Shown: one piece after another, positions 1-27,204 of the stretch | Position numbering within the stretch: position 1 is the first letter of the stretch | Layout: every line of letters starts with the position of its first letter | IMG/VR virus record: IMGVR_UViG_3300033146_001099 | Length of the DNA stretch: 64,000 bases | DNA from: an uncultured virus (IMG/VR IMGVR_UViG_3300033146_001099) | Lineage: Duplodnaviria; Heunggongvirae; Uroviricota; Caudoviricetes | Reading direction: 5' to 3' (one strand) | Notes under the pieces: model-generated | The model's input: the letters and a program-made list of their open reading frames with translations, nothing else | What the model was told of the DNA's origin: nothing | The model's database searches: none | Translations under genes and position numbers: made by a program

Positions 1-46
1 ATAAGACTCGTTAATGATACTGTTGCCAAATATGAGGGAGTTGAAG

Positions 47-214
47 ATGCCTGAATATAATGACAAGAATATAGCAAGGCTGGCAGAAGAAGTAACTGAC
101 TCCGTTGACATGGATGCCCTTCGTCAGAACTTCTATGAGGATCAGTACGATTATTTCAAGAATGATAAGGAAGCATTCCTAGACACTTGGGATTACATGG
201 AGATTGAACTATAA
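47..214 (+). CDS. small acidic hypothetical protein
   Basis: Within ORF 14..214; GGAG RBS at 37-40 supports ATG 47. Confidence 0.6.
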   Translation: MPEYNDKNIARLAEEVTDSVDMDALRQNFYEDQYDYFKNDKEAFLDTWDYMEIEL

Positions 215-384
215 TGTACAAAATAGTAGTGAAGGAAGTGACTGATAGGGAGAGTGAGAACTTCGGCCAATACAAGGTTGTGGAGATGGTTAATAATGTA
301 ACTTACAATATTGGTGCATACATCTCTAGGGAAGCCGTAAAGAGTCTTGCTTTCAGACCGGCATATAAGGTTGTGGTACGATGA
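214..384 (+). CDS. hypothetical protein (56 aa, MYKIVVKEVTDRES...)
   Basis: Translated by hand; TAATG overlap with upstream stop and ATGA overlap with next ORF. Confidence 0.6.
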   Translation: MYKIVVKEVTDRESENFGQYKVVEMVNNVTYNIGAYISREAVKSLAFRPAYKVVVR

Positions 385-518
385 GTGAGTACAAAGATCT
401 AAGTTGCCCTGAGTGTACTGGTATAGTTAATGATTATGGTTTCTGTGAGGACTGTAGTTTTGATGTTGAACAAAATCTACAAGAAACCAATGAAGTGTGG
501 GACGAACTACTTCCCTAA
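381..518 (+). CDS. small Zn-ribbon protein (CPEC...CEDC, 45 aa)
   Basis: Translated by hand; ATGA coupling; its TAA stop forms the first 3 bp of the repeat at 516. Confidence 0.6.
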   Translation: MSEYKDLSCPECTGIVNDYGFCEDCSFDVEQNLQETNEVWDELLP

Positions 519-599
519 GTGCTGAGCCTGTAACGACTTAGAACAATAAGCGTGCGGCGGCGGCAAAATCGCCGTAAACCCTTTGATAGCAACGACTTA
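516..599. repeat. paired 25-bp quasi-palindromes, module A (516-540, 575-599)
   Basis: TAAGTGCTG-N7-AACGACTTA and TAAACCCTT-N7-AACGACTTA; starts 59 bp apart; GC-rich linker. Confidence 0.85.
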
Positions 600-640
600 A
601 AGCTGTTTTCTTTTTCTGCTACTTTAACTCAACTCTGAGC

Positions 641-668
641 TTGACATGGTCGATAATAATAGTATAAT
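641..668 (+). promoter_or_regulatory. sigma70-like promoter
   Basis: TTGACA-16nt-TATAAT; spacer contains TCGATA. Confidence 0.85.
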
Positions 669-696
669 GATACTATAACCTTAAAGGAGTTGAATT

Positions 697-1479
697 ATGT
701 TGAGTCTGAAACGGGCACGAGAAATTTCCAAAGCGTACGGTTTTTCCAGTCTAATTACTGAGCCTACGGCGAATGCCAAGCTACTTAAATCTAAGGATTG
801 GTATAATGCGGGCATTTCATTAGCACAGGCTATGCTGTCGGGATTCAATATGTGTTCCGCGTCTACTGTCCAATGTCGCAATGCTTGCCTAGGTGGAACC
901 GGGCGAGCCGAATTCACTCCAGCGATTGAAAAAGTACGCATTAGTCGGACTAAATTGTACGCTACAGACAGAGAGGTTTTTTGGTCCGTGTTGGAGCCGG
1001 AATTACATAAGGTAGATAGAAAAGCTAAAAAGTTAGGCTTGCCGGTCGCATTCCGTCCTAATATCCTATCCGATCAGCCTTGGCATATTCGCTATCCCGA
1101 AATGTTTAGCACGTTTGCACACTGGCAATTCTATGGCTATACGAAAGTTCGCAGCATGGTATCGGCAGCTATTGCGGGCAGTCTACCTAAAAATATGCAC
1201 GTCACCTATAGCTGGTCGGAAAAGTGCGGCCTAGATTATGTTGAGCAGTGTCTCGACAAAGGGATTAACGTTGCGGTTCCGTTTTATAATCTAGAAACTT
1301 TTAAGCCTATCATTCCGGCCAAATGGCACGGCTGGGATGTGGTTAGCGGTGATATCTCTGATTTGCGTTTCAACGATCCACAAGGCGTTATTGTGGGTTT
1401 GGGTGTCAAGTTGCCAAAAAATCTGAAAAAGGCAAAAGCCCGGATTGAACAGTCAAACGGTTTTTTCGTGGGAGTTTAA
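697..1479 (+). CDS. phage gp88-like protein (Cys-cluster, radical-SAM-like architecture)
   Basis: N-x-C-x6-C-x3-CL-x3-GR, FRPNILSD, FYGYTK, HVTYSWSE, GDISDLRF motifs; AAGGAG RBS. Confidence 0.7.
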   Translation: MLSLKRAREISKAYGFSSLITEPTANAKLLKSKDWYNAGISLAQAMLSGFNMCSASTVQCRNACLGGTGRAEFTPAIEKVRISRTKLYATDREVFWSVLEPELHKVDRKAKKLGLPVAFRPNILSDQPWHIRYPEMFSTFAHWQFYGYTKVRSMVSAAIAGSLPKNMHVTYSWSEKCGLDYVEQCLDKGINVAVPFYNLETFKPIIPAKWHGWDVVSGDISDLRFNDPQGVIVGLGVKLPKNLKKAKARIEQSNGFFVGV

Positions 1480-1480
1480 T

Positions 1481-1672
1481 ATGGGGATGACGTGGAATGA
1501 TTTGTATATGATGATACATGAGAAAGGGCATGTCGACCAAAACTTTTTAGAGGAGAGCGTCACAATTTATGATATGTCAGTGGGAGAATTTTACCCGTGC
1601 GATACTATAGAATTTGAAGAATCTGATGACGTGTTGGATAAGGGTTCTGTATTTTTAGAGATTAAAACTTAA
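1481..1672 (+). CDS. hypothetical protein
   Basis: ORF 1445..1672; ATG 1481 follows GGGAG. Confidence 0.65.
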   Translation: MGMTWNDLYMMIHEKGHVDQNFLEESVTIYDMSVGEFYPCDTIEFEESDDVLDKGSVFLEIKT

Positions 1673-1688
1673 CCAAGGAGCTTTTAGA

Positions 1689-1958
1689 ATGGCTGAAAAA
1701 AAGACTAGGATTAGTGTGACCCTAAAGGATTTTCTACGTGTGACGGTAAAAGAACGCACGACCTTTGAAACACCCGATGCGGCGGCAACAGAGTTAGGTT
1801 TTACGTCGGTGGATTCGTTCAAGCAGCGATTGACTACGATGCGGAAACGTTATCCGGCGATCTTCTCGAACGTCGATAAGTATACGGCCAATAATGGGCC
1901 GCGTATAGCCGACGAACAAGAGGCTTTAGCTTTGCTAGACGAATTGGATTCGGAATAG
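1689..1958 (+). CDS. hypothetical protein, possible HTH DNA-binding
   Basis: AAGGAG RBS; 'AAATELGF' resembles an HTH segment. Confidence 0.65.
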   Translation: MAEKKTRISVTLKDFLRVTVKERTTFETPDAAATELGFTSVDSFKQRLTTMRKRYPAIFSNVDKYTANNGPRIADEQEALALLDELDSE

Positions 1959-2032
1959 TGTGGCTACTTCCTGCTGTCATGGTGGGAATAGTAATCTTTG
2001 CTGCGATTGCTATGTGGCTAGAAGCAACACCC

Positions 2033-2065
2033 CCCCGTTAGGTGGAACCCTAGCGGGGTTTTTTT
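2033..2065 (+). terminator. intrinsic terminator
   Basis: CCCCGTTAGG/CCTAGCGGGG stem followed by T7. Confidence 0.85.
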
Positions 2066-2070
2066 ATTCG

Positions 2071-2154
2071 TAACCTGTTGATACCAAAGGGTTTAGGCCG
2101 AAAAATCCGGCCCGCCCGGCGAATCGCCGTAACCCTTGCCTATCAAAGGACTTA
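2071..2154. repeat. paired 25-bp quasi-palindromes, module B (2071-2095, 2130-2154)
   Basis: TAACCTGTT-N7-AAGGGTTTA and TAACCCTTG-N7-AAGGACTTA; 59-bp spacing; linker GGCCGAAAAATCCGGCCCGCCCGGCGAATCGCCG. Confidence 0.9.
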
Positions 2155-2185
2155 GAACTACTTTATTTTTATGTAAAGTTTAGCC

Positions 2186-2213
2186 TTGTAAATGCCGATA
2201 ATAATAGTATAAT
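2186..2213 (+). promoter_or_regulatory. sigma70-like promoter
   Basis: TTGTAA-16nt-TATAAT; spacer GCCGATAATAATAG nearly identical to the promoter at 641. Confidence 0.75.
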
Positions 2214-2219
2214 CAAAGC

Positions 2220-2438
2220 ATGGAGACAAGACAAATGAAAACTGAAATGCTGATTCAGTGCTGCGAGTGCAACACAATGTCAGAACGGACGATTACTTTG
2301 GAGATCCCTGCCCTACAGGGTTGGAATCGGACGGGTGCAATCGCTTGCACAATAGACCGGGCTCGTCGGGTCTTTCCTAATCTATCAGAACTTGAGCTAC
2401 GAATGTTTGTAGAAACTAAATGTGAAAAATGTGCTTGA
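2220..2438 (+). CDS. small Cys-containing hypothetical protein, possibly leaderless
   Basis: CCEC and CEKC motifs; ATG 7 nt after the -10 box. Confidence 0.6.
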   Translation: METRQMKTEMLIQCCECNTMSERTITLEIPALQGWNRTGAIACTIDRARRVFPNLSELELRMFVETKCEKCA

Positions 2439-2463
2439 CATCCGACTAGTTGGATGTTACAAT
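2435..2463 (+). promoter_or_regulatory. sigma70-like promoter
   Basis: TTGACA-17nt-TACAAT with extended -10 TG. Confidence 0.75.
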
Positions 2464-2506
2464 TAAAATATCAGAAGTTTCGTTTCTTTCTTTAGGAGAT
2501 TTTGTT

Positions 2507-3463
2507 ATGTCGGCACGAGTCGAACAAATGGCGTATTTTGGTGAGGTTCCGTGGCATGGTCTAGGTAATACCCTGGACGGTACTGAGGACGTGGAAGGCG
2601 TCATGCTTAAGGCAGGCTTAGATTGGACGGTCAAGACTGAAACTCTTTATCGTAAAATCGGTGACAGCTACGTCGATTACAAGCTTGGTCGTGCTAGCGT
2701 CCGACAGTCGGATAATTCAGACTTGGGATGCGTCGGCCCACGCTGGACACCGTTACAGAATGCTGATGCGTTTAGGGTTTTCGAGCCGCTCGTAAACTCT
2801 GGCGATATGGCTTGGCATACTGCCGGGTCACTCAAAAACGGGCAGAGAGTTTGGGTTATGTGCCAATTGAACCTGGATAATTCGGTGATCGTCCCTGGTG
2901 ACGAAATCCGCAAATTTGCGTTACTCTCAAACGGCCATGATGGCAAGCTGGCGGTTCACTTTGGCTTCACCCCAATTCGGGTGGTGTGTGCCAATACGGA
3001 GGCTCTTGCCCGTGGTTCCGAGGCATCGAAATTGATTCGAGTTCGGCATCATCAGTTCGTGAAAGAAAACGTGGAGAAGCTTCGTGATATCATGAACCTT
3101 GCCGATCAGGAATTTGAGGCTACTTGCGATCAGTACCGATTCCTCGCTAGTCGCGGAATTAACAAAGCTGATCTTAAAAAGTACGTTAAATTGGTGTTTG
3201 AAGTTCACGACAAGGAAGATACGGACATCTCCACTCGAACCAAGAACATTATCGCAAAGGTGGAAAACTTGTTTGAGACTGGTCGCGGTACCGATGTGCC
3301 GGGAGTGACCGGGACATGGTGGGGAGCATATAATGCTGTCTCCGAGTACCTCAATTACGACAAAGGTAATAACGAGGCAAACCGAATGGACTCGCTTTGG
3401 TTTGGGCCAAATGGTAACCAAAACCAAAAGGCCCTTCTACAGGCTGTGACTCTGGCCGCCTAG
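2507..3463 (+). CDS. DUF932 family phage/plasmid protein
   Basis: PWHGLG, LDWTV, TAGSL..GQRVW, NGHDG, TPIRVVCANT, GTWWGAYNAVSEY; AGGAG RBS before ATG 2507. Confidence 0.9.
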   Translation: MSARVEQMAYFGEVPWHGLGNTLDGTEDVEGVMLKAGLDWTVKTETLYRKIGDSYVDYKLGRASVRQSDNSDLGCVGPRWTPLQNADAFRVFEPLVNSGDMAWHTAGSLKNGQRVWVMCQLNLDNSVIVPGDEIRKFALLSNGHDGKLAVHFGFTPIRVVCANTEALARGSEASKLIRVRHHQFVKENVEKLRDIMNLADQEFEATCDQYRFLASRGINKADLKKYVKLVFEVHDKEDTDISTRTKNIIAKVENLFETGRGTDVPGVTGTWWGAYNAVSEYLNYDKGNNEANRMDSLWFGPNGNQNQKALLQAVTLAA

Positions 3464-3486
3464 AAATTTGGAGCTTGGAGCTTGGA

Positions 3487-3512
3487 ACCTCACCCGCAAG
3501 GGTGGGGTTTTT
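3487..3512 (+). terminator. intrinsic terminator
   Basis: ACCTCACCC-GCAA-GGGTGGGGT followed by T tract. Confidence 0.85.
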
Positions 3513-3521
3513 TATTTGACT

Positions 3522-3655
3522 TAACCTGTTGGTATGAAAAGACTTAGGCCGAAAAATCCGGCCCGCCCGGCGAATCGTCGTAACCCCTTGGTATGAAAGG
3601 ACTTACGGCGTTTTTTATTTAAATTCGATGTAACTCCTTTTAGGCTAAAGACTTA
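3522..3655. repeat. 25-bp quasi-palindromes, module C (3522-3546, 3581-3605, third copy 3631-3655)
   Basis: Same consensus; first two 59 bp apart; linker 33/34 identical to module B. Confidence 0.9.
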
Positions 3656-3657
3656 CG

Positions 3658-3686
3658 TTGACATGTGTCGATATATATAGTATAAT
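3658..3686 (+). promoter_or_regulatory. sigma70-like promoter with no obvious downstream gene
   Basis: TTGACA-17nt-TATAAT; spacer contains TCGATA. Confidence 0.8.
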
Positions 3687-3778
3687 GTAGTACAGGGGGT
3701 ACAGGTAAGGTAGAGAAGATAAAAAAAGTAGAGAAACAAATCGAGACTCGGGTCGGCGTCGAGGTGATCTGGACGGAT

Positions 3779-4300
3779 TGTACCAGCCGTTCCAGCTTGA
3801 GTAGTCTACGAATTGTCTGTATCTCGCGAGTTTTTATAGTCTGTCTGGCCCTGCGAGCACGTCGGTTATATTTACAGTTCGGCCCTGTACCACCCCAGCT
3901 AGCTTAAGCAGCTCCAGGCACGCCAGTTTAATAGTCTAGGGGTAGTCAATGGCACTGGAGTAGCACGCGGGTTTAATAACTCAGAGTATAATTGAATATA
4001 AGTGCTGACTGTATAGGAGATACTATGAGACCTGAATATCGTATATGTAAAAAATGTAATATAGAAAAAGAACTACAGAGATTCGCGGCAAGTAAGCAAT
4101 GTAAATGGGGTCGGGAATGGCGATGCAACACTTGTAAGTGTAGGGCTGTAGCACCCCTTCCAGCTTGGTACGCCCTTCCTTTCTTTGCACGCCAGTTTCG
4201 TAGTCACTGCGTGATCTGTAGCACCCCAGTTAGCTTGGGAACCGCCAATCTAATCTATGCACGCGAGTTAGTCTATAACATGAATTGGCACGGGAGTTAT
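3779..4300 (+). repeat. degenerate bipartite direct repeats
   Basis: TGTASCACCCC...AGCTT at 3779, 3886, 4147, 4217, each followed by a GCACGCSAGTT...TAGTC-like box; extra single boxes near 3857, 3963, 4288. Confidence 0.7.
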
Positions 4301-4327
4301 TTTAATTAAAAAATAAGGTAGAGAAGA

Positions 4328-4657
4328 CTATTGAAGCAGGCAAAAGACAACCCATAGCTGAGCAAGACTCAACGCAGCTAGACCTAGATAGGCCGACCGT
4401 GGTTTGGTCTTGTATAGCTTAAGAAGTGTGGCCGCAATTACCCATAGGCCAGCCATTTTGAGAGTCATGAAGAGAGCCACGGAATTCCCGTCAGCCATAA
4501 TCAGCCACGCACCTATTGGATTTTGTTCATTCGCTATGACATTGGCTTGAAATTTGATCGTAAGGTAGTGGTCAATCAGGCTTATTAAAAGAATCCAAAT
4601 AAAGCCCGCCACTAGTATCTTATCATAATATAATGTTTTCATTTGATTTAAAAACAA
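4328..4657 (-). CDS. small membrane protein (DUF5658-like)
   Basis: Three hydrophobic segments; D..LT and EQNPI motifs. Confidence 0.7.
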   Translation of the reverse strand: MFLNQMKTLYYDKILVAGFIWILLISLIDHYLTIKFQANVIANEQNPIGAWLIMADGNSVALFMTLKMAGLWVIAATLLKLYKTKPRSAYLGLAALSLAQLWVVFCLLQ

Positions 4658-5264
4658 ACCCCCGTAAAATGTACCTGTCGGGATAGTCTTCTTTCATTTG
4701 GACAGAATGCCACGAGTTGTCACATGGGGCGAATACAAATAAAGTATTGCGAATGTATTCAGCCTGCTTAACGATGGTAAAATCAGACCAAGCCGCGTGA
4801 GTACGATCTTCCTGGGTCAGAGAGGACATGTCTTTTTGAGGAACACAAATATTAGTTCCCATGTCCGTTGGCGATCCTTCGGTCGGCATATAAACCATAT
4901 AGCTAACTAGCTTTATTAGCATGTCTCTATGTGGGGTAATCTTATAAGGGAATCTGCTTTTTTGAAACTTACCTACTGAATAGCCGCGTTCCCGCTTATT
5001 AAATTTATCTAGGAATAACTGGGCTATTGTATCGCTCTCTAAAAAATCCAGAACTTTTCGCCCTAGCACCCCTTCTTCCAACATGCTGGTAAAGTTTGTA
5101 AGACTTGGAAATCCTTCTACACTGTCCTTAGTAGCCTTATAGTTGAATACTTCTTTTTCCAACTCAGAATAAAAAAAGTCAGAAAAAACGTCTCTTATGA
5201 TCAGGTGAGGATAAGGAAACTCGATGATCCTGCCCGCACGTAGCTTTTCCTCAAATTCTTTCAA
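4623..5264 (-). CDS. 2OG-Fe(II) oxygenase-like protein
   Basis: PYPH, PHRD (HxD), SWHSV and downstream R; probable TTG start at 5264 coupled to the upstream stop. Confidence 0.75.
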   Translation of the reverse strand: MKEFEEKLRAGRIIEFPYPHLIIRDVFSDFFYSELEKEVFNYKATKDSVEGFPSLTNFTSMLEEGVLGRKVLDFLESDTIAQLFLDKFNKRERGYSVGKFQKSRFPYKITPHRDMLIKLVSYMVYMPTEGSPTDMGTNICVPQKDMSSLTQEDRTHAAWSDFTIVKQAEYIRNTLFVFAPCDNSWHSVQMKEDYPDRYILRGFVFKSNENIIL

Positions 5265-5446
5265 ATCGAGTAATCCGATATGTAAAAAGATAAGGTATAA
5301 ACCAGGACAATTAATACAGAGATGACTACGATATAGCACCCAAGCAATACCTCGTTTTCAATATATTTCATGCTTTTTGCCGTGTAAGGTTCCTCATTCT
5401 TCCCTAATATTCCCAGTCTTTCATCCGAATATATTGTTCCCACCAT
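5261..5446 (-). CDS. small membrane protein
   Basis: C-terminal hydrophobic stretch; translationally coupled to the oxygenase. Confidence 0.5.
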   Translation of the reverse strand: MVGTIYSDERLGILGKNEEPYTAKSMKYIENEVLLGCYIVVISVLIVLVYTLSFYISDYSI

Positions 5447-5613
5447 CCACCCCGCACTCCGAAGAGGCGGCTACTAAAAAGAACAACGAGAAAAAACCCC
5501 ATTGAGCTGGGAGGTTTCTGGGGTGGCTCGTCCCATCTTTCTACCTTTTTTCACCTGCATGAATGTGTGGTAGTCAGCAAGCCTAATTCTCTCGTTGTTC
5601 CCTTAATTATACA

Positions 5614-5886
5614 CTAGGAATCCTTGTTTGCAAGCCTCTCAGACCGCTTTTTAAGAATTTTATAGAAGTTTGTAGCTTCCTCAACCTTCCCGGTTAATTC
5701 TTCCTGAGAAATAATCTCTTTGTCAAGTAGAAGGGAAATTAATCCAAAGAACATTAGATCCTTGACCTCTTCGGAGTGTTCCATCTGAAAGAAGTCTTTC
5801 GCTACTTCATTGAGGGCGGCGTCCCTAACAAAAGGATTATCTGATTCCAGCTCAGAGTTCGGGGTATAATCCATTCTTCTCTCCAT
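5614..5886 (-). CDS. hypothetical protein
   Basis: 90 aa ORF with protein-like composition (LLLDKEIISQEEL). Confidence 0.7.
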   Translation of the reverse strand: MERRMDYTPNSELESDNPFVRDAALNEVAKDFFQMEHSEEVKDLMFFGLISLLLDKEIISQEELTGKVEEATNFYKILKKRSERLANKDS

Positions 5887-6195
5887 CTTTAAAGGGTTTA
5901 AAGGTTTAAAATAATTATTCTTCCAGATTCGTCTTGCCCTCTAGTGGGGACGGAAACCTCGTTGAAGCTCACTGTGTCCTCACAACTGCTAAGTAATATT
6001 TTCTTCTACTATAGTTGTACTACCGGCGAGAACTTTGAAGAAAGAAATCTGGAAAGAAATCCCAGAAAGTTTCAGGAGTATAATTAAAGTGGCACCCAAC
6101 CTGAAATAAAAGTGGCCGTTAAAAGCACTTGAGCATGTCAGTCGTCGTTTTGCGGGAGTTTTATCTTCTTATTATCTTTTTCCTCTACTTTATTC

Positions 6196-6224
6196 TTGAC
6201 ACATTACAATAACAATGGTACAAT
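6196..6224 (+). promoter_or_regulatory. sigma70-like promoter
   Basis: TTGACA-17nt-TACAAT with TG. Confidence 0.65.
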
Positions 6225-6696
6225 GAACATGTAGTAACTGAATAGTACGCTGTTTTACGGGAGTTTTGCTTAATTAAACAGAAGATTTAAGTGGCTGAAT
6301 TCAAAGGGTCACTTATTGTGGGGGACGCACATGCCATGAAGCAGCCAGCCAAAATCCGACAGCCACAAGAGAGGTTGCTAGCTTACTAGTTGTTATAGTG
6401 TTTAAGGGACTCAGTACAAACAAAAACAATAGAAAATAAGCGGTTTTTCCGGTACGAAAGACGAATCACCAATTTCGACTAAAAAACCACCTCAGCAGGC
6501 GACGACACAACATAGTACATCAATCCCCTATGACCTCTGGTCCTATATGTAGTCAAATGTGTTATAGCCAATTAAAGAATTAGAAAGAATAAGAAACCTT
6601 TGACAGGCGAATCAAAACTATTTTGTGTATTAATTAAGAGTTCTTCCAATTTGGAGCCTCAACACACGAGGCGATGAACATTAAGAAAGGTTGATA

Positions 6697-6915
6697 ATGG
6701 ACACAATTATTCAGAGGTTTCATTGGTTTGCGGGTATTACTATTCTAGCACTTATTGGTTTGTTGGTGGTCTTGGGTTTTAGCCGAATTGAATGGCTAGA
6801 TATGGTACTCGGGATTGCTCTCGCTATACTAGGTTGGTTTGCCGGTGTAAATGGAGGTATTGCGGCTACATTGATGAAATTCGATAATATCAATAAGGAT
6901 GAAGGAAATGACTGA
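6697..6915 (+). CDS. two-TM membrane protein
   Basis: Two hydrophobic helices. Confidence 0.7.
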   Translation: MDTIIQRFHWFAGITILALIGLLVVLGFSRIEWLDMVLGIALAILGWFAGVNGGIAATLMKFDNINKDEGND

Positions 6916-7276
6916 CCACTTGATGTTTACAATAACTACTCCAGAGAACCTTTTACATCTTGCTCTCTATGCAGCAGTAAATATAGAAGATGAGAATAAT
7001 AGCGTACGTTTGGTGGCGGATGAGCTAATCTTGGGCTATATAATTCACGATTTCTCTAAGGATAAAACAAAGGAGTACACCGAAAAAGACATGCAAGAGA
7101 AATATCACAGCATGTGCCTGGATTTTACCTTGACAAGGATGGAACAGGAAGGTTTAATAGAGGTAGACTTATCAGGAGAAGAAGCGTCTTATAAGCTAAC
7201 TAGCAAAGGAAAAAAGTACCTATCAACGATGCCAACTACTATGCCATTTTTTAAAAGGGATGATTCTGATGACTAA
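6908..7276 (+). CDS. hypothetical protein with winged-helix-like C-terminus
   Basis: LTRMEQEGLIE...YKLTSKGKKYL. Confidence 0.7.
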   Translation: MTDHLMFTITTPENLLHLALYAAVNIEDENNSVRLVADELILGYIIHDFSKDKTKEYTEKDMQEKYHSMCLDFTLTRMEQEGLIEVDLSGEEASYKLTSKGKKYLSTMPTTMPFFKRDDSDD

Positions 7277-7454
7277 TGAAGACTATTGCCAGAACTGCGA
7301 AGGCAGCGGAAAAGACATTGAAAATGTTTGTCCGAAGTGCCAAGAGAACGAGGCTCATAGTGAATGTGTCATTAATATCGTAGAGGTTCCTTGCCTGCAT
7401 TGTGATTGGGAAGGATACGTTCGAGTCTGTGGGGAACTAGATGGAGATTATTAA
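7269..7454 (+). CDS. small Cys-rich protein (DnaJ-type Zn finger-like)
   Basis: CQNCEGSG, CPKC, CLHC. Confidence 0.6.
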   Translation: MTNEDYCQNCEGSGKDIENVCPKCQENEAHSECVINIVEVPCLHCDWEGYVRVCGELDGDY

Positions 7455-8011
7455 TGATAAACCCTAAGAATATCGTACGATACGATTATAGCTACCGCGA
7501 GCTGGAAGAGCTACTTATCTTCTGCGTCTGTGTGGCAGGTAAGAGGGCGAAAGATATCGCTCCCCGTGTCCATAGTCTGTGTAACCGGATAGCGAGTCCA
7601 CTTTGTTTGAATATCTACTATACTAGGGAAGAATTAGCAAAACGTCTTAAAAAATTAGGTATCGGTTGCTACAACGCAAAAGCAGGGACTATCTATGATA
7701 TAGTTGGTCCGAATGGTCCTGGTGACCTTCGTACGTGCTCGCTGAGCGACCTGGAAGCGATTAAAGGTATCGGACCTAAAACCTCGCGGTTCTTTCTTAT
7801 GTCGTCACGAGCGGGAGTCGTACACGCCACGCTGGATACACATCTTCTACGTTGGATGCGAGACAATGGAGTGGAAAATGTTCCTAAATCGACGCCAACT
7901 GGCAAAAGATACCTTGACTTAGAGAAAACATTTATTACAATGATACCAGAAGGCAAGAGTGCCGCCGAATTTGACCTGGAAATTTGGAACAAGTATAGTA
8001 ATGGGAGTTAA
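7454..8011 (+). CDS. HhH-GPD N-glycosylase/AP lyase (OGG-like)
   Basis: ELLIFCVCVAG, IKGIGPKTSRFF, LDTHLLRWM, YLDLE, DLEIW. Confidence 0.8.
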   Translation: MINPKNIVRYDYSYRELEELLIFCVCVAGKRAKDIAPRVHSLCNRIASPLCLNIYYTREELAKRLKKLGIGCYNAKAGTIYDIVGPNGPGDLRTCSLSDLEAIKGIGPKTSRFFLMSSRAGVVHATLDTHLLRWMRDNGVENVPKSTPTGKRYLDLEKTFITMIPEGKSAAEFDLEIWNKYSNGS

Positions 8012-8135
8012 GTTATGGCTACTGTCGCTTGGTGGATTTTAGTGGGAACTTTTCTTTGCTCTATCCATTACCAAGAAAGTGCTACTATAGTCTTGGGTTT
8101 TATCCTCACTCGTTCATACCTAAAGGTATAAAAAC

Positions 8136-8339
8136 ATGACAAAAGAAATCGTTGAACAATACATGGAAGATAACGCATTTCTCAACGCCGATCATAAATT
8201 GAGAATCCATGAGGTGTATGCTGGGCGTTTTCGAGTTAACGTATGGCAGCACGATCCCGTTAATAAGATTTATAGCTCTTACTTTATTCGGGCTAATGAG
8301 AGCGGGGTCATCTCTTGTGATCCACAGTTGGGTGCATAA
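8136..8339 (+). CDS. hypothetical protein
   Basis: ORF with RBS; coupled to the next gene. Confidence 0.65.
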   Translation: MTKEIVEQYMEDNAFLNADHKLRIHEVYAGRFRVNVWQHDPVNKIYSSYFIRANESGVISCDPQLGA

Positions 8340-8629
8340 TGCCTGATCTAATATCACAATCGTTTTTGTATTGCCCTTCTGTTGAGAACTTCACCTCAGT
8401 TAAGGGTAGTAAAAACTACCTTGTTCGTCATGGAGCGTCCCCATATGGTAAACACCTATATGAATGGCATTGTGAGTGTGACGGTTTCAAATACCGTAAG
8501 AAGTGCCGACATATAGAAGAAGCAAAGAAAGAATACTGTGGATGGGATCAGTTTACTGATGGAGAGGCGGCTGGAGCTCAATGTCCACGATGTGGAGAGA
8601 AACTGTTAAGTAGAGAGGTACGAGTATAA
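8339..8629 (+). CDS. SWIM zinc-finger protein
   Basis: WHCECDGFKYRKKCRHI; also CPRC. Confidence 0.8.
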   Translation: MPDLISQSFLYCPSVENFTSVKGSKNYLVRHGASPYGKHLYEWHCECDGFKYRKKCRHIEEAKKEYCGWDQFTDGEAAGAQCPRCGEKLLSREVRV

Positions 8630-8850
8630 CGACTTATACTATCGGCCTAAGAGATGGACCGCTACACAACAGTATAATTAAAATAGACACAAACATTGCT
8701 CCAGGCGAAACGTTCAACCTTCCTCATCTGGGCAAGGAGTACACCTATCGCCTGTTAGTTACTGCTGTGGCAAAAATGACATACAGAGAGGGCAGTACCC
8801 CTGCGTCTCTGGCATGTGGTGCAATTTATGTTGATCCATTAAGGAATTAA
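8626..8850 (+). CDS. hypothetical 74-aa ORF with apparent ATA start
   Basis: Open frame fills the gap; GAGAGG RBS 7 nt before ATA, which overlaps the previous TAA. Confidence 0.45.
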   Translation: MTTYTIGLRDGPLHNSIIKIDTNIAPGETFNLPHLGKEYTYRLLVTAVAKMTYREGSTPASLACGAIYVDPLRN

Positions 8851-8856
8851 GATATC

Positions 8857-9003
8857 ATGAGCGGACCAAAGCTATCGAAGAAAGATCGTAAGAAAATAAG
8901 GGAATTGCGACGTAAGAGACAGAATAAGAGAAACCCTAAAGGTACTATTAAAACTGACGACCGTAAAAAAGAGGAATATTACGATGATCAGAGTAATAGG
9001 TGA
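8857..9003 (+). CDS. small basic protein (MSGPKLSKKDRKK...)
   Basis: Translated by hand; AAGGA upstream. Confidence 0.5.
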   Translation: MSGPKLSKKDRKKIRELRRKRQNKRNPKGTIKTDDRKKEEYYDDQSNR

Positions 9004-9676
9004 TGTACATAACAAGCTATCCCAGTATGTACCTATCGCACAAGAAGCAGAGCACTCTCTCCAGCTCGGAGATATGGGATTTGACTATACTGAGCTAAGC
9101 GAGCTGAATCCTAGGCGACATAGGTTTTTTGGCGGAAATCACGACAACTATGATTTGTATGATGATAGTTCTCATGCATTAGGTGATTATGGTTCAGAGA
9201 TGTTGGGTTGCATAGAATTTTTCTATGTACGTGGCTCAATTAGTATCGACTGTGTTCAGCGTGTTCAAGACTTCATTCTTTCTGGCCACAAGAGTTGGTG
9301 GTACGAAGAAGAGTTAAATAGCAAGCAACTGGAAGCGGCGATTGACTTGTATACTAAAATCAAGCCTAACATTATGATCACGCATGACTGCCCCAGTGTC
9401 ATCAAGAGTCGATTTGCTTCTAGCACTGCCATGAAACGCTTTGGTTGGCCCGAAGATCACACTTGTCTTACACAGCAGGCTTTGACAGTGATGCACGAGA
9501 CGCATCCCCCGAAGCTACATTTTCTAGGTCATTGGCATCGCAATTGGAATGCAGTGATAGATGGAACACATTTTATTATGATAGATGAACTTAGCTGGGT
9601 TGATTTAAAAAAGGAAAATGGTAGATATATAGTGACTTCTCCTGAAGGTAAGGAACTAGCTAATATTTCAGCTTGA
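8984..9676 (+). CDS. calcineurin-like metallophosphoesterase
   Basis: GDVH, GDMG, GNHD, THDCP, GHWH. Confidence 0.9.
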   Translation: MIRVIGDVHNKLSQYVPIAQEAEHSLQLGDMGFDYTELSELNPRRHRFFGGNHDNYDLYDDSSHALGDYGSEMLGCIEFFYVRGSISIDCVQRVQDFILSGHKSWWYEEELNSKQLEAAIDLYTKIKPNIMITHDCPSVIKSRFASSTAMKRFGWPEDHTCLTQQALTVMHETHPPKLHFLGHWHRNWNAVIDGTHFIMIDELSWVDLKKENGRYIVTSPEGKELANISA

Positions 9677-9700
9677 CATAGCCGATATAGATGTTAGAAT
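9673..9700 (+). promoter_or_regulatory. sigma70-like promoter
   Basis: TTGACA-16nt-TAGAAT; GCCGATA in spacer; TG extension. Confidence 0.75.
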
Positions 9701-9706
9701 GAAAGC

Positions 9707-10150
9707 ATGTGTAAGGCGACTGACAACTCCCATAAAACTGCAACAACACGCAGTAAACTATCGTCGGCGGCTCAATATCTTGTTGACAATGACCTCCTAC
9801 AGGGCGAATGTCTCGACTTTGGTTGCGGTAAGGGATGGGACTGTAATGAATTGCAGATTGATGGTTACGATCCGTACTATCGACCAAATGATGGGATAGA
9901 GTTTAAACTATATGATACTATTATGTGTAATTTTGTACTAAATGTATTACAAAAGCCGATGAGAGATAAAGTTATATTGGACATTCAACAGCACCTTGCG
10001 GTCGGAGGGATAGCATATATCGCAGTCCGTAATGATAAGAAGAACCTCAATGGCTTTATGTGGGGGGGTACTTTTCAGACCTTTGTAGAGTTGGATCTTC
10101 CAATTGAGAAAAAGACCTCTAGCTTTGTTATGTATAGAATCAACAACTAA
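9707..10150 (+). CDS. small class I SAM-dependent methyltransferase
   Basis: LDFGCGKG, YDPYY, CNFVLNV. Confidence 0.85.
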   Translation: MCKATDNSHKTATTRSKLSSAAQYLVDNDLLQGECLDFGCGKGWDCNELQIDGYDPYYRPNDGIEFKLYDTIMCNFVLNVLQKPMRDKVILDIQQHLAVGGIAYIAVRNDKKNLNGFMWGGTFQTFVELDLPIEKKTSSFVMYRINN

Positions 10151-10234
10151 CTGGCGGGGGCAACGAGGACAAGTTCCTACACGGATGTAGCAAGTGGTGT
10201 ATAATTAGCTTTGGCTTAACAGGGGGCATTTTAG

Positions 10235-10435
10235 ATGGTGTTTGAGTACCATATTCTAGGTAGAAATATCAAGAAAAAAGAGAAGTACGATAAGGTCTTG
10301 CAGATAAAAGGCTCAGCTTTTGAGCTTAAGACGAAGTTATATCCTAATCATGAGAATATCCGCCGTCATATTGTACATCTATTGCTAGAAATGGGTATAG
10401 TTGTATCTGAGATACAGCCCGTTGAACAAGCGTAA
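10235..10435 (+). CDS. hypothetical protein
   Basis: 66 aa ORF in operon context. Confidence 0.55.
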   Translation: MVFEYHILGRNIKKKEKYDKVLQIKGSAFELKTKLYPNHENIRRHIVHLLLEMGIVVSEIQPVEQA

Positions 10436-10448
10436 TTTAAGACTGGAG

Positions 10449-10649
10449 ATGATGATGACTGAGAGAGAGACATTTTGGAAGCAGGCGTATCTTCGCAGCA
10501 TGGAGCATGACTTAGCTCATTCTGTTCATGAGAAGAATGCCAAGGTCGCTCTAGAATCATTTGATAAAAAGTTTCCCAAGGTAAAAGAAAAAGAAGAGGA
10601 AGGGAAAGACGGAACTAAGGTTAGCGGATTTTCACACAACGAGGTCTGA
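10449..10649 (+). CDS. hypothetical protein
   Basis: GGAG RBS; start within ORF 10401..10649. Confidence 0.6.
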   Translation: MMMTERETFWKQAYLRSMEHDLAHSVHEKNAKVALESFDKKFPKVKEKEEEGKDGTKVSGFSHNEV

Positions 10650-10936
10650 GACCCCTAATTACCCTGGTACTACAGCGGGGAATAAACTACTGTAGCATTA
10701 TTTATGTTATGTTCAAGGAGGTATTACTATGCCATTCAAAAACAGGGAAAAACAATTAGAAGCACAGCCGGACTTCCAAGAATATCATGAACAGACTTCG
10801 ATGGATCGAAACGACGACCCGCCCATATCGGAGGACTTGGTAGTCTGGATGACAGAGCCTATTCCGTGGGCGTTGGCCCCACGTTCAAACTGCGGGTAAG
10901 GGATGACTGTAACATAAAACCGGGAGAATAAGAAGC

Positions 10937-11251
10937 ATGATAAATATTACTGATGCGGCAGTCGCGGAAGTCAAGCGAATAATTGGGGACGAAGAGTTTC
11001 TACGAGTAGGCGTTGAGGCTGCGGGATGCAACGGACTCAGCTATAGATTGCGTTTTGATAAACAATTTGATAAAGAGAACGATGTTAGATATACCTCTGA
11101 GGGATTTGATATTGTAATAGATAAGAAAAGCGACCTGTATATAGACGGCACTACATTGGACTGGATAGACGAATTAATGAATAGGGGGTTTCATTTCAGC
11201 AATCCAGCGGCGGTCAAAAATTGTGGATGCGGAAAGTCGTTCTCAGTTTAA
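10937..11251 (+). CDS. iscA: HesB/IscA family A-type Fe-S carrier protein
   Basis: ITDAA, LRVGVEAAGCNGLSY, GFHFSNP, CGCGKSF. Confidence 0.95.
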   Translation: MINITDAAVAEVKRIIGDEEFLRVGVEAAGCNGLSYRLRFDKQFDKENDVRYTSEGFDIVIDKKSDLYIDGTTLDWIDELMNRGFHFSNPAAVKNCGCGKSFSV

Positions 11252-11261
11252 TATCATATCT

Positions 11262-11882
11262 ATGAAAACATCAACTATATGTCTTGTCGGCAATGCCTAT
11301 AGCTTGAAGGGTTTAGGACTAGGAGAGGCAATAGACAATCATACTCATATTCTAAGGTTCAACCACTATAAGGTAGAAGGGTATGAAGAAGACGTAGGAG
11401 AAAGAACTACTCATTGGTCGGCAGCCCCGGAACCAATCTGTAGGCTAATAAAACAAGAAGGTCTACAATATTTTAGACAATACAAGACAGTATGGGCAAG
11501 GAATTGGGGAGGTAGGGGACGACCACCTAACCAGATACAGATCGCCAAGATCGCCTCGTACTGGAAAGATCACGAAGTATGTGACCTGCAATGGCTTTCG
11601 GAAGACACTCTAAGAGAATGTGGTTCACCCTATAGGGATTGGGAAGAGGAGTTCTTAAAAGCTCAAAAACAGGGAACAACAACAGGATTCTTAGCATTGA
11701 TTTTTGCTATGCATCACTACAAGACGCCAATCAGTATAGGTGGATTTGGATTCTCTGAATATTCAAACTATGACTATTATTCAGGAGGAGAGATTAATAG
11801 AAATCATTCATTAGATAAAGAGCGTCTCGTAATCAACAGATGGGTTGAACAAGGCTTGCTTAACAGGATAGAAGAAGAATGA
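11262..11882 (+). CDS. GT29-family sialyltransferase-like protein
   Basis: Sialylmotif L (ICLVGN..IDNH..ILRFN..EDVGERTT), S (TTGFLAL..IGGFG), DYY, and VS (HSLDKE). Confidence 0.8.
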   Translation: MKTSTICLVGNAYSLKGLGLGEAIDNHTHILRFNHYKVEGYEEDVGERTTHWSAAPEPICRLIKQEGLQYFRQYKTVWARNWGGRGRPPNQIQIAKIASYWKDHEVCDLQWLSEDTLRECGSPYRDWEEEFLKAQKQGTTTGFLALIFAMHHYKTPISIGGFGFSEYSNYDYYSGGEINRNHSLDKERLVINRWVEQGLLNRIEEE

Positions 11883-12544
11883 AGGTCATTATTCCATATC
11901 GTGAGAAATCAGATCGATGTGTAAACAAGAACACTCGTGAATTCTTCAAGGGTCGATCTATCCTTGATCTCAGTGTAGAACACCTTAAAGACCATGATGT
12001 AACTTTGGCTTGCCTTCCTTCGCCATCGTCGACTAAAAGAGCAATAGACCTTAACGTAAAACAGATGACTCTCTCAGCACACACTTCCACCGGAAGCTGG
12101 TCTGAGTTAGCTATTGATATAGCTGAAAAAATTGATTTGTGCGAACACGAAGAACCAGTAGCTTTCGTATACTGTACTTGTCCTGTATTTTACAAGCTTA
12201 ATCTCGTCAATGATTTCTTGTTGCGTGGAAAAGAAGCTGTAGAGTCTGGCAAAAGTGCTATAGTAGTTGAGTCGCTAAGGCATTACATTGTAGACGAGAA
12301 TATGAAAGGCGTTAATTTTGAACAAGGAGAAGGACATAAATACTCACAAAGCATTCTAAAGTGGTATAGTATACCGGGAGTCTTGACTGTAACCACGCCA
12401 GAAGATATGTTAAAGCATAAATACTGGTACTCTCCTGCACCAACTCCTCTAGAAGCTGTTGGCCCCTGTCTTGATATAGATACCGAAGAAGATTTTAAAA
12501 TTGCCAAGACAATTTATGCTACACTAAGTCAGGACATTTTATAA
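11879..12544 (+). CDS. acylneuraminate cytidylyltransferase-like protein (NeuA/KdsB fold)
   Basis: IIPYREKSDRC.NKN.R.F, CTCP, LDIDTEEDF. Confidence 0.8.
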   Translation: MKVIIPYREKSDRCVNKNTREFFKGRSILDLSVEHLKDHDVTLACLPSPSSTKRAIDLNVKQMTLSAHTSTGSWSELAIDIAEKIDLCEHEEPVAFVYCTCPVFYKLNLVNDFLLRGKEAVESGKSAIVVESLRHYIVDENMKGVNFEQGEGHKYSQSILKWYSIPGVLTVTTPEDMLKHKYWYSPAPTPLEAVGPCLDIDTEEDFKIAKTIYATLSQDIL

Positions 12545-12548
12545 ATCT

Positions 12549-12623
12549 GCGGCACGGCGATCCCGGTTGGGTCGGGAAATCTTATAAGTTTCTGCTTTCA
12601 GAGTTCAACTCTCTGGTGCCGTA
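12549..12623 (+). tRNA. tRNA-Ile, anticodon UAU, atypical D arm
   Basis: Acceptor GCGGCAC/GTGCCGT+A; anticodon arm GAAAT-CTTATAA-GTTTC; T arm CAGAG-TTCAACT-CTCTG; CCA not encoded. Confidence 0.8.
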
Positions 12624-12653
12624 CTTAACAATCCAGAAAGGTGTATTTGTGCT

Positions 12654-12860
12654 ATGAAGATCCTTAGGCGGGGCATTCCAAAAGCAAAGTTGTTCTATCA
12701 GGGTGAATGTCATTCCTGTAACACTGTAGTGGAGTTTAGCAAGAGAGAGAGTGAAATCATTCAGGGAGATGTGGAATACGTATCTGTTGCGTGCCCTGTC
12801 TGTCAAAAAGACAATATAAAAGTCGAATCAAGTAAAGGCTATGAAAAAGGTCTATCTTAA
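12654..12860 (+). CDS. Zn-ribbon protein
   Basis: CHSC...CPVC. Confidence 0.7.
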   Translation: MKILRRGIPKAKLFYQGECHSCNTVVEFSKRESEIIQGDVEYVSVACPVCQKDNIKVESSKGYEKGLS

Positions 12861-13006
12861 ATTAATGTGTCACTCTCAATGTCGTAATTGGGATGACCTC
12901 TATCCAAGTTGGTTTCTGAGCCCTCTTTGCTATGTCAAATTTGAGCAACTACAGAAAACCATATCTTGTCATCCGGCAGATGACTTAGAAAAATTTGAAT
13001 AAATTC

Positions 13007-13034
13007 TTGACATTTGATCAGATAATGTTATAAT
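13007..13034 (+). promoter_or_regulatory. sigma70-like promoter of the phage sigma factor gene
   Basis: TTGACA-16nt-TATAAT; CAGATA in spacer; TG extension. Confidence 0.8.
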
Positions 13035-13110
13035 CAAGCTAGGAAATGACGATAATGATAGTATGGCCCATTTAATCTAATTTTGTTCACGACAACGATA
13101 GGAAAATCAC

Positions 13111-13878
13111 ATGACAGACCAGTACAAAGTTGATATTACAGCAGCATTCGTTAAACTAACATCCGCTGAGATGGAGGCTCTTTCTTACCGTAAGACTAAC
13201 GGCGATCTCGCAGCTCGCGACACGCTTGTTTGTAGCTGCCTTCCGTTGGTGTATGATATTGCTCAAAAGTTTCGAAGGAATAATTGGCACATTGATCTGG
13301 AAGACATGATTCAACATGGCAACGTTGCTTTGATTCGTGCGGTCGACGACTGGGATCATACGCGGGCACGCTTATCTACTCTTGCTACTTGGTATGTGCG
13401 TAATTCTTTAATTGACATGATCAAAGAAAGTAAGTACTGTATCAAGAATAAGTTTGAGATGAGTAGACAATCCTGTGATGACATGCGAAAGATCAGGGAT
13501 GCCGACAGCAACGATATTATAATTATCAAAGAAAAAACTGGCTTGACTGAGAAGCGAATCAAGTTGCTTCAACGTATCATGTCCTCCAAGAGAATCGGCT
13601 ATGATATATGCGATATGCGGCTACATACCTATGAAGAGTATGAGAGTCAAGTAGACAGTAATATTGATGGTTGCCTAGCCGAGTTGATTGAGTTGGTTGA
13701 AGAAGTAGTTGATGACGAAGATGAAAAGGACATCTTCTTCTATTGGCTACGTCACGTTCATAAGAACAATAAAACTCGATTAACTGCTGATGGTATGGAT
13801 AGTTCATTACAGGATGTATCTAGGATTGTACGTAAGACTAAAAAGGCAGTACGAACTCAGGTGCGTTCTAATGCCTAA
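13111..13878 (+). CDS. sigma70-family RNA polymerase sigma factor
   Basis: Region 2: GDLAARDTLV..LPLV..IA, LEDMIQHGNVALIRAVDDWD, LSTLATWYVR. Confidence 0.85.
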   Translation: MTDQYKVDITAAFVKLTSAEMEALSYRKTNGDLAARDTLVCSCLPLVYDIAQKFRRNNWHIDLEDMIQHGNVALIRAVDDWDHTRARLSTLATWYVRNSLIDMIKESKYCIKNKFEMSRQSCDDMRKIRDADSNDIIIIKEKTGLTEKRIKLLQRIMSSKRIGYDICDMRLHTYEEYESQVDSNIDGCLAELIELVEEVVDDEDEKDIFFYWLRHVHKNNKTRLTADGMDSSLQDVSRIVRKTKKAVRTQVRSNA

Positions 13879-14095
13879 ATATTATATTCAGGACGGTCTT
13901 GACGAAGCAGTTGTCGATGCCCAGAGCCCCACTAGTGCCTGCGTAAAAGCCATAAGACTGCATATGTTTCGATCTGTTATGATCGGCGGACACTACTGGG
14001 TATCAGAGCGAGGCTTCAACGTTCATCCTGAAGGAGAAGACCAAAAAATTTGTTCTGATGAAATAAATTCCATATTATTTTTGGACGAGCCTTGA
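13871..14095 (+). CDS. hypothetical protein
   Basis: Coupled start MPKYYIQ; VSERGF motif. Confidence 0.65.
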   Translation: MPKYYIQDGLDEAVVDAQSPTSACVKAIRLHMFRSVMIGGHYWVSERGFNVHPEGEDQKICSDEINSILFLDEP

Positions 14096-16264: not shown

Positions 16265-16265
16265 C

Positions 16266-25061: not shown

Positions 25062-25062
25062 G

Positions 25063-25196
25063 ATGAAGATTTTGTATCACCATCTACCAAAGTGCGGGGA
25101 ATTATCTCCGAGTCAGTTCAAAAACAGCTAGATAATAGCCTTGACTATCAAATATATCTGAATATTCAAGAGAGGATGGTATCTCGTGATAGATAA
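25063..25196 (+). pseudogene. internally deleted sulfotransferase (family 2-like) remnant
   Basis: N-terminal MKILYHHLPKCGG (PAPS loop) joined out of frame to a C-terminal-like NSLDYQIY segment. Confidence 0.65.
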
Positions 25197-27189: not shown

Positions 27190-27204
27190 AGATAAGGTTT
27201 AGGT

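Follow-up and report, generated by a model that had tools for sequence, protein, structure and literature searches.

Promoter-early stem-loops (PeSLs), known from the T4-type phages RB49/phi1, T4/PST and KVP40/nt-1 (PMC2839356, PMC4122927), are composite units of a stem-loop, an A/T-rich stretch and a sigma-70 promoter, with a stem-loop sequence that is specific to the lineage and a clustered occurrence in hyperplastic regions, according to PMC4122927. The same paper describes PeSLs as adjoining insertions, deletions, replacements and displaced open reading frames (ORFs) and as mediating shuffling, and cites from Arbiol et al. 2010 (PMC2839356) mini-circles formed between tandem copies. The locus considered here lies in a 64,000-nucleotide stretch (the window) of an uncultured virus, IMG/VR record IMGVR_UViG_3300033146_001099, in which seven 25-bp pseudo-palindromic sites, arranged in three modules (A, B and C), stand at the borders of small early-gene cassettes.

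The modules and PeSLs are alike in being repeated composite non-coding units between small, mostly ORFan early genes of T4 relatives, in combining a symmetric element, an A/T-rich stretch, a near-consensus sigma-70 promoter, a Shine-Dalgarno sequence and a start codon, and in having a lineage-specific symmetric element together with ORF insertion, deletion, replacement and displacement between close relatives. They differ in that a PeSL holds one short stem-loop acting as a terminator, whereas the present module holds paired or triple 25-bp pseudo-palindromes, spaced at a constant 52–53 bp (in the window 59 bp) with only G and C in the spacer between them and devoid of covariation between the arms, and in that a separate true terminator precedes modules B and C of the window. 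Paired sites and two alternative site types were not met in the accessible text of PMC4122927. The module is best classed as a PeSL-like regulatory cassette, distinguished by its fixed pseudo-palindrome pair, its G/C-only spacer and the existence of at least two site types.

The reading favoured here, to which we assign a probability of roughly one half, is that the module would globally control or insulate early promoters and, in addition, supply portable homology for the shuffling of cassettes. The seven sites would be the hallmark of a PeSL-like control cassette lying between genes in the variable (hyperplastic) early region of a T4 relative, with each border carrying two (in module C three) pseudo-palindromes of the form gaCG-TAAGTCCTT-N7-AAGGACTTA-CGtc, a spacer that is G/C only in its central 8–10 bp, an A/T-rich stretch and then a strong sigma-70 promoter. 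Confidence is high for the part that concerns cassette borders and shuffling, and low for the direction of regulation.

Seven sites in three composite modules

All seven sites reported in the initial annotation are present, at 516, 575, 2071, 2130, 3522, 3581 and 3631, and the start-to-start spacing within the first two sites of each module (516/575, 2071/2130, 3522/3581) proved to be exactly 59 bp on re-measurement, with 50 bp for 3581/3631. Module A, whose sites like all others are assigned no strand, begins with site A1 (516–540, TAAGTGCTGAGCCTGTAACGACTTA), the weakest palindrome of the seven, with right half AACGACTTA, and runs through a 34-bp linker (541–574) with the G+C-rich core GCGGCGGCGGC to site A2 (575–599, TAAACCCTTTGATAGCAACGACTTA), whose half-site nearer the promoter belongs to the GTT type (read as TAAGTCGTT on the opposite strand), an orientation common in the family. 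An A/T-rich stretch (600–640) then leads to promoter A (641–668, plus strand), composed of TTGACA, a 16-bp spacer holding CGATAATAATAG, and TATAAT, with 12 of 12 consensus positions.

Module B consists of site B1 (2071–2095, TAACCTGTTGATACCAAAGGGTTTA), whose GTT-type outer half TAACCTGTT here lies on the promoter-distal side, a 34-bp G+C-rich linker (2096–2129, GGCCGAAAAATCCGGCCCGCCCGGCGAATCGCCG) and site B2 (2130–2154, TAACCCTTGCCTATCAAAGGACTTA), followed by promoter B (2186–2213, plus strand), with TTGTAA, a 16-bp spacer again holding CGATAATAATAG, and TATAAT (10 of 12 positions). In module C, sites C1 (3522–3546, TAACCTGTTGGTATGAAAAGACTTA) and C2 (3581–3605, TAACCCCTTGGTATGAAAGGACTTA; the best fit to the family consensus, at 32.9 bits) flank a G+C-rich 34-bp linker (3547–3580) which, on re-reading, agrees with the linker of module B in 33 of 34 positions and differs in a single base; the two sites also share the central core GGTATGA, as the initial annotation had it. 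A third site, C3 (3631–3655, TAACTCCTTTTAGGCTAAAGACTTA), follows 50 bp past C2 across an A/T-rich linker and ends 2 bp before the -35 box of promoter C (3658–3686, plus strand), with TTGACA, a 17-bp spacer holding CGATATATATAG, and TATAAT (12 of 12 positions). Third sites within a module were also found in loci L035 and L059.

Each module follows the end of a transcription unit and precedes a near-consensus sigma-70 promoter. The TAA stop codon of the last small ORF upstream (381–518, plus strand, 45 aa) coincides with the first three bases of A1; cassette A closes at 2033–2068 (plus strand) with an intrinsic terminator-like hairpin of 10 pairs (2033–2058) and a T-run, and cassette B at 3484–3520 (plus strand) with one of 12 pairs (3484–3511) and a T-run. 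The serial unit of site pair, promoter, genes and terminator is therefore real, and it is kept in many related phages. The three promoters share an 18-base spacer and -10 block, CGATA(A/T)(T/A)AATAGTATAAT, for which the only other match in the window, at 37271, carries 3 mismatches.

With the consensus of the initial annotation, no more than 2 mismatches are needed for six of the seven sites and 3 for the site at 2071, as for all matches outside the array in the 64-kb window. Raw matches on both strands number 24 against 11.6 expected, a count reached in 2 of 100 shuffles; the sites are therefore distinguished by clustering and pairing and not by number. A matrix built from the seven sites scores them at 21.9–32.9 bits and finds at best 12.7 elsewhere in the window; it is circular for its own training sites and informative for the remainder, across which the sites are limited to 516–3655 with no random scatter over the 64 kb. 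The consensus itself needs correction, its symmetric part being TAAnnCCTT-N7-AAGGnnTTA.

A family of modules with two site types

Related modules were recovered in further viral contigs by a loose two-site pattern. A single-site pattern, TAAMCCCTT-N7-AAGGACTTA (about 17.5 specified bases), matched more than 163 stretches in IMG/VR, against a chance expectation that we estimate at about 3–6, and more than 130 stretches in GTDB genomes. The GTDB stretches with several sites are short contigs of 37–45% G+C in metagenome-assembled genomes (MAGs) of many phyla, evidently phage contigs, and the lone GTDB matches in high-G+C chromosomes are close to the chance level (about 35 expected, by our estimate). 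The 80 IMG/VR loci examined derive from 59 contigs by hand count, which places the module in at least 59 contigs.

The single-site search did not impose pairing. Among the matches listed, adjacent sites in de-duplicated viral pairs lie 53 bp apart in 95 cases and 52 bp apart in 30, and the 242 unique modules with full flanks, a set that takes in loci retrieved by the 59-bp pattern, show 53 bp in 177, 52 bp in 36 and 59 bp in nine. The 59-bp pairing, exact as it is in the window, is accordingly a minority form in a family whose usual spacing is 53 bp. Under a strict promoter pattern, 98 of the 242 modules are flanked by a promoter on one side only, 143 by none and one by promoters on both sides; in the 98 promoter-oriented modules the GTT-type outer half-site (TAAGTCGTT, TAAGTTGTT, TAAAGTGTT, TAAGTGGTT) is promoter-proximal in 52 and promoter-distal in only about five, and the second site stands at a median of 41 bp from the -35 box.

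In records of 100% completeness, the symmetric pattern with at most 2 mismatches finds 28 (G002), 15 (G003), 26 (G004), 17 (G005) and 11 (G006) sites, against 0–1 for a reversed-pattern control in the same five genomes. Where positions were listed they form one block per genome (107–130 kb in G002, 0–9 kb in G003, 36–55 kb in G004 and 131–139 kb in G006), a site-filled region of 9–23 kb. A 33-bp symmetric matrix, trained on array sites, detects at 14 bits or more 113 sites inside the arrays and none outside them in G002, G003, G004, G006 and the window. The arrays adjoin the structural-gene block and lie upstream of rIIA, and their ORFs are mostly small and without homologues even in the other complete genomes; by this combination of position and ORFan content, they fit the description of the hyperplastic early region of a T4-related genome.

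Cultured phages offered no counterpart: a blastn comparison of 8 kb of the window and two modules with 50,697 GenBank phage records gave nothing meaningful, and Phaeobacter phage MD18, the nearest cultured relative by rIIA, has 0 sites. A full-text literature search with the half-site words likewise returned nothing on such sites among the matches listed. As far as the literature and cultured-phage searches go, the paired-site module thus appears to be undescribed.

A second site type occupies the same architecture. The complete genome G008 carries an array of CTGCCAAAATGGCAG pairs (CTGCCA-N3-TGGCAG; type II, as against type I for the sites described above), 29 bp apart with a G+C-rich linker between them, followed as in type I by an A/T-rich stretch and a promoter with the CGATA word. 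All 20 type II matches in G008 fall within 172–14,044 (loci L418 and L376), other genomes having 0–1, and type II modules occur also in L349, L358 and L387. G008 has almost no type I sites, and it carries the gene for a small helix-turn-helix (HTH) protein that stands next to many arrays and is discussed below; around this gene, 44 of 80 loci have at least two type I sites, 4 have at least two type II sites, the two types never coincide, and 32 loci lack both, many of these 32 holding little downstream DNA or having the array more than 10 kb away, as in G009. G008 is closest to the type I genome G004 (median 68.8% amino-acid identity over 48 proteins), its medians against the type I genomes G002 and G003 being 56.1% and 58.6%. 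Since the type II genome is nearest to a type I genome, the site type was replaced within the clade while the architecture was kept. Such a swap is what would be expected of an exchangeable regulator–operator pair and is less expected of a purely structural element, which suggests the former.

Symmetry, folding and cassette exchange

Conservation in the sites is two-fold symmetric. Among 968 half-sites the commonest words are TAAGTCCTT (268), TAAACCCTT (140), TAAGTCGTT (100) and TAAGTGCTT (62), and conservation reaches into the flanks, with gaCG before the site and CGtc after it, C at position -1 and G/C at position 0. The spacer centre (columns 36–43 of the 242 modules) contains almost no A or T, with no fixed sequence. 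The two arms of a site do not change together: in 108 array sites the dinucleotide at positions 4–5 is the same in both half-sites in 36 cases, against 46.5 expected under independence, the G variant of position 7 is almost never shared by the two arms of a site, and a perfect 9-bp stem is found in only three. Symmetric conservation without compensatory change is the pattern of an operator pair for a dimeric protein, and the missing covariation points to double-stranded protein sites and not to hairpins; with moderate confidence, the sites are read as double-stranded DNA that would be recognised by a two-fold symmetric protein. The initial annotation had offered cooperative operators for a dimeric protein as one of its two alternatives, and the statistics of the half-sites agree with it.

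The same depletion of matched arms speaks against the view that the palindromes and the G+C spacer act as hairpins, be it as a terminator, as an RNA processing or stabilising structure or as a DNA cruciform. Whole family modules do fold better than their shuffles (mean -28.4 versus -20.7 kcal/mol), a G+C run followed by TTT stands on the sense strand in 22 of the 98 promoter-oriented modules, and type II sites are perfect 6-bp palindromes. Moreover, a separate terminator-like hairpin within 90 nt upstream was found in only 8 of these 98, so that the strong terminators just ahead of modules B and C in the window are not the rule, and in most of these phages no structured element other than the module stands between cassettes. 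The linkers, however, fold barely more stably than shuffles (-10.5 versus -8.7 kcal/mol), and the window's modules behave inconsistently as single-stranded DNA (z = -0.25, -3.96, -1.59 and +0.75 for A, B, C and C3), those of A, C and C3 being no better than shuffles and that of B folding through a different pairing. An Rfam scan of window positions 400–4400 gave no match at E up to 1, and modules B and C of the window are preceded directly by strong terminators of their own; a hairpin function is on balance unlikely.

Inverted arms around a 6–8 bp centre, in an array of gene cassettes, also recall attC and the cores of tyrosine recombinases (loxP, dif, att), and the other alternative of the initial annotation was an integron-like system of cassette exchange. 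In this model a tyrosine or serine recombinase would cross over at each 25-bp site and move cassettes by exchange in the 7-bp core, for which the geometry (inverted arms of 9–13 bp around a 7-bp centre), the common core of C1 and C2 and the differing cassette order among relatives can be cited. The enzyme is missing, as the initial annotation had observed for the window: no tyrosine or serine recombinase domain occurs among the window ORFs scanned, and six-frame profile searches found PF00589 (Phage_integrase) and PF00239 (Resolvase) in 0 of 5 complete array-bearing genomes, the controls being positive in 14 of 14 and 12 of 14 reference genomes, respectively. A shared core is missing as well, because hardly any central 7-mer recurs (the most frequent is found four times in 108 sites, C1 and C2 being the exception), and there is no attC-like single-strand fold. 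Integron attC sites carry the words GTTRRRY / RYYYAAC, which on direct reading are absent from the present sites; furthermore, integron cassettes are promoterless, whereas each cassette here has its own promoter. Lacking recombinase, common core and consistent fold, the integron-like model fails its defining tests, and recombinase crossover at the sites is the most improbable of the mechanisms considered.

That cassettes nevertheless move is evident from comparison with relatives. In the window, cassette A (697–1958, plus strand) comprises genes at 697–1479 (Pfam GP88, PF17338), 1481–1672 and 1689–1958, and cassette B (2235–3463, plus strand) comprises genes at 2235–2438 (67 aa) and 2507–3463 (DUF932, PF06067), with an internal promoter-like site at 2435–2463; apart from the GP88-family and DUF932 genes, the small ORFs between the modules have no family matches in Pfam and PHROG scans. 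In L040, the nearest syntenic relative, modules B and C, the genes at 1481–1672 and 1689–1958 and the DUF932 gene are kept, and counterparts of the GP88 gene and of the 67-aa gene that follows promoter B are absent. Homologues of DUF932 adjoin such modules in 10 loci, among them L173, which belongs to the same phage. Six close relatives of G004, in which the HTH protein is 78–92% identical, have genes of one cassette split apart and in reversed order: the homologues of G004 36141–36440 and 36740–37057 lie in L342 at 14618 and 12334 (98% and 90% identical), separated by modules at 12655, 13152 and 14378. Cassette order and content thus vary among relatives, with modules at the borders, and in a T4 relative without a recombinase this variation fits homology-driven shuffling of the PeSL type and not exchange in a 7-bp core.

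Sequencing runs provide a further view of the locus. The stretch is contained in 20 listed runs, every one of them entered as probable DNA ('DNA?') with no RNA run in the list; they derive from metagenomes of marine sediment, of marine origin and of hydrothermal vents, and from one coded organism. Contigs of four DNA runs were aligned on window positions 1–8000, assembled contigs being unable to show rare forms. Loose contig ends occur at 554, 599, 3571–3579 and 3610, where other contigs match a site and part of the linker and then diverge; they indicate further near-identical modules in the same samples, and probably also modules to the left of window position 1. A single contig, of run X1, steps back by 51 bp from 604 to 554 and so repeats 554–604 (part of the linker and A2), which would give module A an extra site; this rearrangement in one of the four runs could be counted in favour of crossover at the sites.

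The contigs of the four runs contained no joint that skips a cassette and no pile-up of molecule ends. This bears on a further mechanism, in which the sites would be programmed for nicking or cutting by a phage nuclease that starts cassette exchange or the release of mini-circles. The clade does carry HNH and endonuclease VII genes, and mini-circles have been reported at the PeSLs of RB49/phi1, as cited in PMC4122927. The aligned contigs show no place where molecules begin or end, though contigs cannot reveal this, and we regard such cut sites as very improbable.

Shuffling with modules at the borders could in principle be all that there is to explain, the module being a pure portable homology or a selfish regulatory cassette that is kept alike by gene conversion inside each genome and by horizontal spread among co-infecting phages, with no dedicated protein and with no importance beyond that of a recombination substrate. 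Consistent with this, the linkers of B and C agree in 33 of 34 positions while their sites differ more, the loose contig ends at 554, 599, 3573 and 3610 reflect many near-identical copies in the same samples, and in the close relative G008 a whole array has switched site type while the core proteins are visibly unchanged. However, the half-site words are conserved across phages whose core proteins are only 25–60% identical, the spacing is fixed at 52–53 bp, the core of the spacer is G/C only and has no fixed sequence, and the module is polar towards the promoter. These four features argue for selection on function and against mere homogenisation, and they make an explanation by homology alone rather improbable.

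Proposed regulation and the phage that carries the modules

On the favoured reading of the module as a control or insulation platform, a two-fold symmetric, sequence-specific protein, encoded by phage or host, would occupy each site as a dimer, with joint action of the dimer pair in a module. Because the same platform stands before the promoters of the whole array, one such protein would control or insulate every early accessory cassette simultaneously, most plausibly as a global shut-off of, or brake on, very strong early promoters, for which C3, beside the -35 box, would be the clearest case. As a by-product, evident from the comparison of relatives, the 80–200 bp of conserved non-coding DNA at each border provides a recombination-proficient phage with portable homology, so that cassettes are exchanged, lost and reordered between relatives.

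Systems in which one global repressor acts at many operators offer partial parallels. KorB recognises 12 OB palindromes on plasmid RK2, and Aca repressors act at strong anti-CRISPR promoters. The present arrays resemble these systems in having one palindromic word before many promoters, at some beside the -35 box and at others tens of bp upstream, and in having strong promoters that need damping. They differ in that each module sets its sites as a fixed pair with a G+C spacer, in a lytic T4-related phage, and in that no cognate protein was found.

The promoters of the arrays have a signature of their own, a CGATA(A/T) word in the spacer a few bases past the -35 box (651–668, 2196–2213 and 3669–3686 in the window), which is common to type I and type II phages. 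On the strand opposite the early genes, words of the form TGGCAC-N5-TTGCA occur at 108.6–128.7 kb in G002 and 7.3–14.9 kb in G008, where they sit between module and promoter; none is present in the array of the window. They fit the consensus of -24/-12 (sigma-54-like) promoters.

Several observations weigh against the proposed mechanism, some of them in the geometry of the modules. Whereas the family norm of 52–53 bp corresponds to 5.0 helical turns (for 53 bp), and the 50-bp spacing of C2 and C3 in the window to 4.8, the 59 bp of the window correspond to 5.6 turns and would place the two sites on different faces of the helix, which makes a simple cooperative-dimer picture weaker for this phage. 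By our reading of the half-site types, module A has the usual orientation, and B and C appear to be inverted. Only the 98 of 242 modules mentioned above have a recognisable promoter on exactly one side under the strict pattern, and most modules lie 20–60 bp upstream of the -35 box and not over the promoter, so that simple steric repression does not follow. Nor is the module needed for promoter function, since CGATA promoters occur without one in 2 of 5 cases in the window, 9 of 20 in G004 and 8 of 14 in G002.

The search for a reader of the sites also counts against it. Presence/absence and divergence profiling of the complete genomes identified no binding protein: all 36 families common to the four type I complete genomes occur also in G008 and G011, and the type II genome G008 has no core protein of unusual divergence. 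Inspection by eye of the ORFs found solely in type II genomes, all of them short, revealed no DNA-binding signature, no family scan having been run on them. The one DNA-binding candidate beside the arrays is the conserved HTH protein, about 75 aa long, whose gene heads many arrays and has a promoter of its own that lacks a module (L324:13514–13744 in G004, L337:1501–1725 in G002, L336:1468–1698 in G003, L335:1468–1701 in G005), which has 334 relatives in IMG/VR. It is predicted to comprise three helices and an R-G-R-P (AT-hook-like) tail (model pLDDT 81.8), with weak fold likeness to GcrA, Myb DNA-binding domains and the HTH of small terminases (E about 1), and in 57 loci with at least 4 kb downstream, modules lie downstream of its gene in 34 and upstream in none. 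This GcrA/Myb-like protein is nevertheless unlikely to be the reader of the palindromes and cannot be what distinguishes the two site types, because it is 76–80% identical across types I and II and undetected in the array-bearing G006; nor was it found in the 64 kb of the window. One may speculate that it reads a feature common to both types, such as the CGATA word.

Host factors fared no better. IHF was discarded: the IHF-like word WATCAANNNNTTR fits a few sites, but the A and T columns it requires are not conserved. CtrA, LexA and CRP were likewise set aside, their consensus words not fitting the sites by eye. The binding protein may be a small one that evolves fast, one that enters together with the injected DNA, or a product of the host.

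These possibilities leave room for a more specific version, in which the paired sites would be the operators of an exchangeable regulator–operator system with at least two 'immunity-like' types (TAAGTCCTT-N7-AAGGACTTA and CTGCCA-N3-TGGCAG) that would turn the entire accessory early-gene array on or off as a block across a large clade of uncultured T4 relatives, the regulator being small, fast-evolving or injected and hence missed by homology. We put this forward tentatively, as a possibility that falls short of an even chance.

The phage itself is placed by its genes. Pfam and PHROG scans and tblastn locate rIIA at 14162–16264 and rIIB at 16254–17150, and the best cultured rIIA matches, in the roseobacter phages MD18 and DSS3_MAL1, reach about 27% identity by tblastn; with both rII genes present and cultured matches so remote, the window is best taken as belonging to a distant, uncultured relative of the T4-type phages. 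Other genes in the window encode SSB, RuvB, nucleotide-metabolism proteins and the phage's own sigma factor. The nearest record to the window, G001, is a 40.7-kb fragment without the site region. Locus L173, a 6.6-kb contig in a Flavobacteriales MAG, encodes proteins 97–100% identical to those of window 2235–8008; it is a piece of this phage binned as bacterial and gives no firm evidence of the host.

Additional features of the window lie outside the array. They include a permuted tmRNA gene at 40954–41177 (plus strand; RF04321, 100.6 bits, above the Rfam gathering score, with a match to alpha_tmRNA also), a tRNA-Ile gene (anticodon TAT) at 12549–12624, and a P-loop helicase/recombinase-like gene with a LAGLIDADG intein-like interruption at 62443–63999, which runs past the window end. 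A long run of glycosyltransferase, methyltransferase, aminotransferase, nucleotidyl-transferase and sulfotransferase genes at 21837–37111 is a phage-carried surface-sugar pathway.

Downstream of promoter C, about 330 bases (3693–4024) have no convincing ORF, and folding of this 332-nt leader is not better than that of shuffles (z = +0.98). Within it, a 36-bp stretch (3803–3838) is 86% identical in L040. Short words are repeated across 3800–4200, and contigs of two runs carry an in-frame 30-bp insertion at 4142, inside the ORF at 4025–4309.

The hyperplastic early regions of T4-type phages hold host-takeover and anti-defence genes, and their regulation and reshuffling are only partly understood. 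The module provides a strongly conserved and readily recognisable signature of such regions in many uncultured aquatic and sediment phages, and can therefore be used to locate arrays of early accessory genes in metagenomic data. The present findings also extend the idea of PeSL-type shuffling to a distant, uncultured branch of the T4 relatives. Should there be a cognate protein, early accessory genes would be under a global controller whose specificity has been swapped between close relatives.

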